This document shows, one piece after another, positions 29,443 through 29,475 of a stretch of 64,000 nucleotides of DNA. Position 1 is the stretch's first letter; every line of letters begins with the position of its first letter. Source of the DNA: a virus. Below the pieces are notes generated by a model. The model was given only the letters and a program-made list of their open reading frames with translations, was not told the DNA's origin and did no database searches. The translations under genes and the position numbers were made by a program. The stretch covers positions 1 to 64,000 of the IMG/VR virus record IMGVR_UViG_3300042892_004373. The stretch is one strand, 5' to 3'.

Positions 29443-29475
29443 TTAAGTTGGACCTCTGATTACAATCTATCTCAT
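29443..29475 (-). promoter_or_regulatory. Putative leader uORF M-R-(UAG)-I-V-I-R-G-P-T
   Basis: ATG AGA TAG ATT GTA ATC AGA GGT CCA ACT TAA after an A-rich initiation context. Confidence 0.5.

Follow-up and report, generated by a model that had tools for sequence, protein, structure and literature searches.

Translation itself serves as a regulatory gauge in several described systems. In the trp, his and phe attenuators, the key codon of a short leader reads one charged tRNA and selects the state of the mRNA, and in the autoregulation of prfB, the gene of release factor 2 (RF2), an early in-frame UGA gauges the efficiency of termination. The arrest peptides of the RAPP, RAPG and RAGP type (ApdA, ApdP, ApcA, SecM) are encoded by upstream open reading frames (ORFs) ending in Arg-x-Pro, and their stalled ribosome is thought to disrupt a structure that hides the start of the next gene. 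Here we describe an upstream ORF with a similar ending and an in-frame UAG, located on the minus strand of a 64-kb stretch of DNA (hereafter the window), which is part of the 73-kb IMG/VR virus record IMGVR_UViG_3300042892_004373, estimated to be 26% complete. The source is a huge phage, as judged from its relatives, a phage record of 635 kb and contigs measuring 90-350 kb. We consider it probable that this leader is translated, reports the readthrough of UAG and sets the translation of the following gene, coding for a protein of 138 amino acids (aa), accordingly. It would belong to a familiar type of regulation, in which a ribosome stalled on a leader peptide exerts control, but its input, stop-codon decoding, would be new.

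Like the RAPP-type leaders, the leader in the window overlaps or abuts with its end a structure predicted to hide a start. Differences are its length of 10 codons in comparison to more than 100, the lack of a signal or membrane segment and of release by a pulling force, and the motif, which is R-G-P-T here and R-x-P-stop or K-P-P-stop in relatives, as against RAPP in known arrest peptides. RAPP-type peptides regulate Sec or YidC components, whereas here the downstream product is a protein without a Pfam domain and the input is an in-frame UAG. With the attenuators our leader shares its shortness and a regulatory codon (UAG in 32 of 35 leaders, see below), but this codon is a stop contested by a suppressor tRNA and release factor 1 (RF1), whereas attenuators read a charged tRNA at a sense codon. 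Attenuators furthermore choose between a terminator and an antiterminator, while a start would be unmasked here and the leader in the window contains no terminator-like site. The early in-frame stop of prfB has its closest counterpart in a TAG at codon 5 of a nearby gene, Pth2-HD. However, prfB continues in the +1 frame and its product is the release factor that reads the codon, whereas in all lineages investigated here the conserved peptide continues in the zero frame beyond the TAG and the gene products are not such factors.

Three further systems are relevant. According to passages of PMC11890864, the PepNL leader of E. coli arrests at a stop codon and tRNA readthrough relieves the arrest; it is likewise very short and readthrough decides on arrest, but in the window readthrough would be needed to reach the arrest site. 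In the C-terminal tail of AMD1, as described in parts of PMC13025110, only readthrough ribosomes reach an arrest peptide and stall at the next stop. This element is eukaryotic, sits at the end of the main ORF and limits its own mRNA, in contrast to an upstream leader that would unmask another gene. Passages of Borges et al. (10.1101/2021.08.26.457843) describe 'code change modules', in which suppressor tRNA genes are clustered with translation-related genes. Phage suppressor tRNAs are likewise found near translation genes in our study, although the phages considered here are not generally recoded. The same passages make no mention of 'uorf', 'sensor' or 'peptidyl-tRNA hydrolase', and full-text literature searches yielded no description of a UAG-gated leader or of a gated Pth2 beside phage suppressor tRNAs.

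The leader reads ATG AGA TAG ATT GTA ATC AGA GGT CCA ACT TAA (29475-29443, minus strand), translated as M-R-UAG-I-V-I-R-G-P-T-stop. It lies inside a 107-nt gap downstream of an HD_4-domain gene, and a spacer of 55 nt (29442-29388) separates its stop from the ATG (29387) of the 138-aa ORF. A preliminary description made from the sequence alone had reported these letters, the 55-nt distance and an A-rich start context, all of which were borne out by reading the minus strand. The start context lacks a Shine-Dalgarno (SD) sequence, as does the start of the 138-aa gene. That description had also placed the leader downstream of the Pth2-HD gene on the same strand, which is true, though two genes (one of 120 aa and the HD_4 gene of 196 aa) intervene, and had stressed that both share the context TAG-ATT; Pth2-HD indeed reads ATG AAA AAC ACT TAG ATT. 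The elements on which the argument depends are as follows.

29473-29475, minus strand: start codon of the leader, from sequence reading
29467-29469, minus strand: in-frame UAG gate, next base A (TAG-ATT); 32 of 35 distinct leaders have TAG here
29446-29466, minus strand: post-gate codons I-V-I-R-G-P-T with the stall-type R-G-P core, from the sequence and homologous leaders
29443-29445, minus strand: leader stop TAA (TGA in locus L104, TAG in L091)
29437-29453, minus strand: anti-start (masking) strand, composed of GUCCA (29449-29453) and UUAAUAUUUU (29437-29446), from minimum-free-energy folds
29382-29402, minus strand: start region of the 138-aa gene, composed of AAAAUAUUAA (29393-29402) and UGGAC (29382-29386, overlapping the AUG at 29385-29387), from minimum-free-energy folds
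28971-29387, minus strand: 138-aa gene, with an invariant C-terminal motif Y-[KV]-E-E-K-G-D-[FY]

Homologous DNA was taken from IMG/VR and metagenomes as loci around relatives of the 138-aa protein, 45 of them from metagenomes. We defined a strict pattern as an ATG followed by 1-5 codons, the TAG, a further 2-8 codons with Pro or Pro-X at their end, and a stop; 30 of the 35 distinct leaders of homologous genes contained it. L005 and L100 have the same ORF with its TAG, the final stop being lost via a 1-nt insertion, which brings the TAG total to 32; L015, L105 and L109 lack a leader. When TAA, TGA, CAG, CAA, AAG or GAG took the place of TAG in the scan, none of the 35 leaders matched, and the reverse complement of the 35 contained no strict pattern either. 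Dinucleotide shuffles (n=200) yielded a mean of 0.07 leaders with the strict pattern out of 35, and elsewhere in the same loci there were 5 matches in 263,928 nt. A bare M-R-stop is trivial by chance; the full pattern is not. Throughout the genomes of four phage contigs, a loose version of the pattern occurred at background, with TAG as a gate no commoner than TAA or TGA. The search for the ORF, its TAG and its R-G-P upstream of homologues of 28971-29387, which the preliminary description had proposed, thus turned out in its favour.

The leader was found in 15 of 18 protein clusters defined at 50% identity, and none of the 32 leaders has a sense codon or a different stop in place of the TAG. 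A purine after UAG favours suppression, and the base following the TAG is A or G in 24/24 lineages. Close relatives share the first 29 nt of the leader without change while their flanks have diverged, and in L001-L006 the identity extends over 33 nt. L104 differs from the window by two synonymous changes (ATC>ATT and ACT>ACC), by the conservative AGA>AAA at codon 2 and by TAA>TGA. Beside proteins of merely 22-33% identity, leaders such as M-K-UAG-I-I-R-G-P-T, M-S-UAG-V-K-P-P, M-S-UAG-T-R-P-P, M-R-UAG-I-R-S-P, M-K-D-T-UAG-I-H-I-R-P-P and M-K-UAG-V-R-S-R-G-P are found, the number of codons before the TAG ranging from 1 to 5. A strong SD precedes the leader by 5-9 nt in 10 of 24 lineages; before the main gene an SD is seen in 0 of 24. 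Taken as a comparison of sequences, these data suggest that the leader is translated.

The end of the leader is predicted to pair with the start of the 138-aa gene. In the fold of the window, GUCCA, lying in the Gly and Pro codons, pairs with UGGAC, and UUAAUAUUUU pairs with AAAAUAUUAA; out of 118 sliding windows, the one with the anti-start strand forms the best duplex with the start region. When 24 lineages were scanned in this way (117-200 sliding windows per leader), the best partner of the main start region fell between -8 and +21 nt relative to the leader stop in 23 of them, and in 24/24 once the L007 start was moved to the third ATG, a post hoc choice made after seeing the L007 fold. 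For shuffled start regions the expectation was 6.8 lineages, with a maximum of 17 in 200,000 simulations. Many lineages set CCAUAA (Pro and stop) against the UUAUGG of the start, and the masking strand begins 10-26 nt past the first base of the UAG. We modelled a ribosome as blocking positions -15..+12 around its A-site codon and computed the unpaired probability of the start region. The lineage mean was 0.40 for the free RNA, 0.41 with the ribosome on the UAG and 0.66 with the ribosome at the leader end; the respective values for the window (-10..+5) were 0.42, 0.42 and 0.89. A ribosome is thus predicted to expose the start when it stands at the leader end and not when it stands on the UAG.

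Translation of the leader could also act on transcription by setting Rho-dependent or intrinsic termination, and hence determine expression of the downstream gene and, in relatives, the supply of tRNA(CUA). Many relatives do carry tRNA(CUA) directly after the gene on the same strand, and while spacers measure 52-134 nt across lineages, those of L066, L069, L070, L073, L081 and L102 are long and structured (-32 to -43 kcal/mol). The window, however, has no terminator-like site between leader and gene (29443 to 29387) and no tRNA after the gene, and pairing to the start codon region is the sole feature common to all lineages. We regard this explanation as very unlikely.

The codons after the gate have been kept as well. 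An R/K/N-x-P ending is present in all 32 leaders having the ORF, the residues before the stop in relatives being R-G-P, R-P-P, R-S-P, K-P-P, N-G-P or R-D-P. The terminal Pro is written CCA, CCG, CCT or CCC across lineages, Arg is AGA, AGG or CGA, and a middle Ser is TCA, TCT or AGT. R/K-x-P is also kept in the 10 lineages whose masking strand is located entirely downstream of the last sense codon; therefore, the conserved proline is not a by-product of RNA pairing. Judged by these substitutions, the stretch after the TAG appears to be selected as a peptide, and the UAG must then sometimes be read through. Two-codon ORFs are known from the bar minigenes of lambda, and the M-R-stop minigene alone might function here by peptidyl-tRNA drop-off or by occupying RF1, with the post-TAG stretch conserved as RNA. 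The presence of a peptidyl-tRNA hydrolase gene in the module would fit such a role, and the CCAUAA/UUAUGG pairing in many lineages indicates that conservation is partly at the RNA level. Yet the post-TAG frame is kept in 32 of the 35 leaders with Ser as AGT or TCN and Pro by four codons, the proline persists outside the helix and the number of codons before the TAG varies, which makes a minigene function highly improbable.

For control by readthrough, we propose the following sequence of events. By default, the start of the 138-aa gene would be hidden, its start region being paired with the last leader codons and the bases after them. A ribosome initiating at 29475 would meet the UAG at codon 3. 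If RF1 wins, the ribosome would come off the mRNA 16 nt short of the masking strand, and translation of the gene would stay off. If a suppressor tRNA or another cause of readthrough wins, it would proceed to I-V-I-R-G-P-T. There it may be held at R-G-P, either by an elongation arrest of the SecM/RAPP kind or, in relatives, by slow release after a C-terminal proline; the held ribosome would cover the masking strand, the start region would open and the 138-aa protein would be made. The Pth2-HD gene would use a UAG gate directly within its own reading frame. Both the polarity of the switch (on with readthrough) and the origin of readthrough in this phage are presumed.

A C-terminal proline slows release, and R-G-P resembles the R-A-P core of the RAPP and SecM-type peptides. 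Parts of PMC10951233 state that no peptide bond can form when R-A-P occupies the P site and that, in the view of its authors, a minimal RxPP motif is enough for arrest. By analogy with these cases, ribosomes may stall at R-G-P. In the L005 lineage the stop has been lost and R-G-P-T is unchanged, which fits an arrest at the motif and not at the stop in this clade. As its chief rival we consider a readthrough-dependent unmasking without true arrest, in which ribosomes melt the helix in transit or hand over to the downstream start, and R/K-x-P slows release slightly or serves otherwise. A very short peptide fits this rival, as do the placement of the masking strand and the modelling, for which a ribosome at the leader end suffices and no long stall is needed; the lack of an SD before the main gene in 24/24 lineages could mean that this gene depends on leader ribosomes. 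On the other hand, R/K/N-x-P is kept in all 32 leaders with varied codons and outside the masking strand in 10 lineages, and spacers of 52-134 nt are long for termination-reinitiation, so that transit alone appears unlikely. The preliminary description had suggested that only readthrough ribosomes reach I-R-G-P, where they may stall and regulate the downstream gene. The comparison supports this idea in that the TAG, the peptide and the position of the masking strand are kept, while the stall itself is argued from analogy.

Several observations weigh against control by readthrough and stalling. The nascent chain would have merely 10 residues, and R-G-P-T, whose R-G-P the preliminary description had called arrest-like, shares the Arg-x-Pro core of the SecM and RAPP types but is no exact R-A-P-P, R-A-P-G or R-A-G-P motif. 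L075 and L091 end their leader with a TAG that a suppressor could also read, and L005 and L100 have lost the leader stop. Unmasking is not predicted for 4 of the 24 lineages (L011, L013, L014, L090). The fold of the window leader is modest (-9.3 kcal/mol, z = -1.05), its helices being AU-rich and weak, and the one helix that RNAalifold retained for 7 leaders of the window clade was the invariant 5-bp GUCCA/UGGAC pairing, in which no pair was compensatory. Given that the 24 lineages are related, p-values overstate their independence. Finally, ARAGORN calls no tRNA(CUA) in the window clade contigs G000, G001 and G002 (73, 179 and 151 kb), and motif scan and homology yielded only atypical tRNA-like candidates with a CUA loop in the window.

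The TAG might also be a plain sense codon, as in genetic code 15, and the leader an ordinary arrest leader sensing something else. Relatives encode tRNA(CUA), and TAG-recoded huge phages are known from passages of Borges et al. (10.1101/2021.08.26.457843). With table 11, however, the window has 74 ORFs of at least 100 aa (coverage 0.85) with stops TAA 68, TAG 4 and TGA 2, and its 344-kb relative G003 has 400 such ORFs (coverage 0.86) with stops TAA 303, TAG 29 and TGA 68. TAG therefore ends real genes and serves these phages as a normal stop; neither the many in-frame TAG nor the poor table-11 ORF density expected of code 15 was seen. In G000-G003, gating of long ORFs by an early TAG is no commoner than gating by TAA or TGA, Pth2 excepted. 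Together with a gate that is never Gln or another sense codon in 32 leaders, this leaves a general recoding barely credible. Short RF1-like proteins (RF-1 domain, PxT-type Q-R-[IV]-P-P-T-E motif, GGQ) were observed in relatives in frames with in-frame stops: L178 (LR745206.1 48139-48459, two TGA), L179 (G003 34617-34940, TAG at codon 6) and L180 (G005 190529-190843, one TGA). No RF1-like gene of this type was found in G000 or G001.

In relatives, the homologous gene is often accompanied by a gene for a UAG-reading tRNA. ARAGORN places tRNA(CUA) directly after it in L007/8, L011/12, L013, L066 (two copies), L068, L069, L071 (two copies), L076, L077, L085/86, L087 and L090, and about 0.5-1.6 kb upstream in L009/10, L083, L084, L102, L107 and L109; L014/L101 have a tRNA whose 8-nt loop contains CUA. 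Linkage is thereby seen in 10 of 18 clusters, plus the cluster with the 8-nt loop, several of the remaining loci being short. The design is kept in many distant huge phages, usually beside a gene of a UAG-reading tRNA.

Two candidates from the window could be related to such genes, neither of them called by ARAGORN or Rfam (31627-31694 and 20764-20902). The first, upstream of the module, is uncertain:

31627-31694, minus strand: degenerate tRNA-like candidate gene whose middle hairpin carries CUA in its loop

It has a good T arm and the hairpin loop CCUCUAAAA, although manual pairing of the acceptor stem gave only 5 of 7 pairs. Its position matches that of the tRNA(CUA) upstream of Pth2-HD in L009, and its homologue in G002 is a 78-nt RNA about 1 kb upstream of Pth2-HD that adopts a cloverleaf in an unconstrained fold, with CUA in a 9-nt loop. 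The second, at 20764-20902 (minus strand, 139 nt), folds with -34.6 kcal/mol (z = -3.8, 0/200 shuffles as stable) into a 9-bp closing stem, a hairpin loop with UUCUAAU containing CUA, a long AU-rich arm and a T arm; the same element occurs in G001. It is a possible atypical, class-II-like amber suppressor. A conserved box GTATCTTTGT is found at 31700-31725 (minus strand) before the 31627-31694 remnant and again at about 20712-20721 (minus strand). We take it to resemble the -7 promoter element of Bacteroidota, which fits the SD-less, A-rich start contexts of the window clade. At 20100-20700 (minus strand) there are at least 3 tRNA-like repeat units of about 90 nt. Besides an acceptor stem and a T arm, each unit has an additional tetraloop hairpin, CUCAC-YUCG-GUGAG, and another hairpin with the 7-nt loop CUUCGAA. 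In these units ARAGORN calls one tRNA with a 4-base anticodon and Rfam gives weak tmRNA-like matches of 13-15 bits. A GOLLD RNA (RF02032, 324 bits vs a gathering score of 150) lies at 19091-19497 (minus strand) beside a tRNA cluster.

The Pth2-HD gene provides a second, more direct gate.

30492-31412, minus strand: Pth2-HD gene, frame starting ATG AAA AAC ACT TAG (TAG at 31398-31400), from PF01981 and the sequence
29495-30085, minus strand: HD_4-domain gene of 196 aa (PF13328), from Pfam

The N-terminal half of the Pth2-HD product is a PTH2 peptidyl-tRNA hydrolase domain (31035-31397; PF01981 with 25.5 bits vs a cut-off of 23, and 35.5 bits for Pth2 of L007). Since no ATG, GTG or TTG occurs between the TAG at codon 5 and residue 127, Pth2-HD needs readthrough of its TAG. 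An early TAG is present in the Pth2 or HD genes of every relative examined (L007, L009, L011, L013, L014, L015, L105, G001, G002, LR745206.1). In the leaderless L015, the homologue of the 138-aa gene lies directly behind a Pth2 starting M-T-UAG, and in the leaderless L105 behind an HD gene starting M-T-UAG. The Pth2 gene of the 635-kb LR745206.1 starts M-N-N-UAG-I; its surroundings up to 3 kb contain no member of the 138-aa family, and no tRNA(CUA) was among those of the 61 tRNAs of this record that fell into the 12 scanned loci. In G002, an ORF of 311 aa was seen at 31775-32719 (minus strand), just outside L005. Its Cys/His modules are repeated and by eye it resembles homing endonucleases; it starts M-M-UAG-I-K and sits between the cloverleaf CUA tRNA and Pth2-HD. 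At 30129-30503 of the window, contigs from the RNA libraries of two runs (X17, X18) join 30128 to 30504, from which it follows that some relatives are without the 120-aa gene.

Further features of the region complete the picture.

28942-28965, both strands: bidirectional terminator-like hairpin beyond the 138-aa gene and the convergent ClpB-like gene
26883-28937, plus strand: ClpB-like ATPase with two AAA domains (Pfam)
25879-26721, minus strand: GluRS-like ORF, 280 aa, short and judged by eye
32294-33550, minus strand: LeuRS-like ORF, 418 aa, short and judged by eye

A repeated promoter or operator motif was ruled out for the leader, as its 25-nt core has no second copy in the window or the 73-kb record. 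In IMG/VR, a 19-nt core is limited to six syntenic contigs. Rfam on 29200-29700 with E up to 10 returned chance snoRNA matches only and no riboswitch or T-box-like family. Logan contigs from four freshwater metatranscriptome runs cover the leader, with ends, strand and level unreadable and DNA carry-over possible. One 652-nt contig from an RNA library (29021-29672) joins the 3' end of the HD_4 gene, the leader and most of the 138-aa ORF, and hints at transcription of the leader region.

The regulated protein itself belongs to a family of 484 clusters (90% identity) in a large protein set, all of them unnamed or 'hypothetical' and none with a Pfam domain; Pfam likewise finds no domain in the 138-aa protein. 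Its AlphaFold2 model is mostly helical (pLDDT 84.7). Foldseek against PDB gave nothing at E <= 0.001, VIA-align wide reached a best Z of 6.0 with generic helical bundles and no fold assigned, and the ESM Atlas held no usable match. A complex prediction of E. coli RF1 with the 138-aa family scored 0.00, which gives no verdict and is evidence neither way. We tentatively hypothesize a self-checking switch, a possible though rather doubtful reading, in which a phage otherwise using the standard code gauges, through the leader and the gated Pth2-HD, its own UAG-reading tRNA against host RF1. Only working readthrough would license the peptidyl-tRNA hydrolase and the 138-aa factor. The latter may target the suppressor itself or termination (an RF1 antagonist would be one example) and feed forward into a committed change in the reading of UAG.

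How phages with suppressor tRNAs control and time the change in meaning of a stop codon is an open question. Published work has proposed timing by recoded late genes and describes no sensor. If the leader acts as proposed here, it would be the first natural cis-element that turns the contest of tRNA(CUA) with RF1 into on/off translation of a neighbouring gene. Very short R/K-x-P peptides of 7-12 residues would join the catalogue of arrest sequences, and a compact, portable readout of amber suppression would become available for genetic-code engineering. For the phages themselves, two unstudied players in suppression would emerge, the gated Pth2-HD enzyme and the 484-cluster family with its invariant EEKGD[FY] tail.
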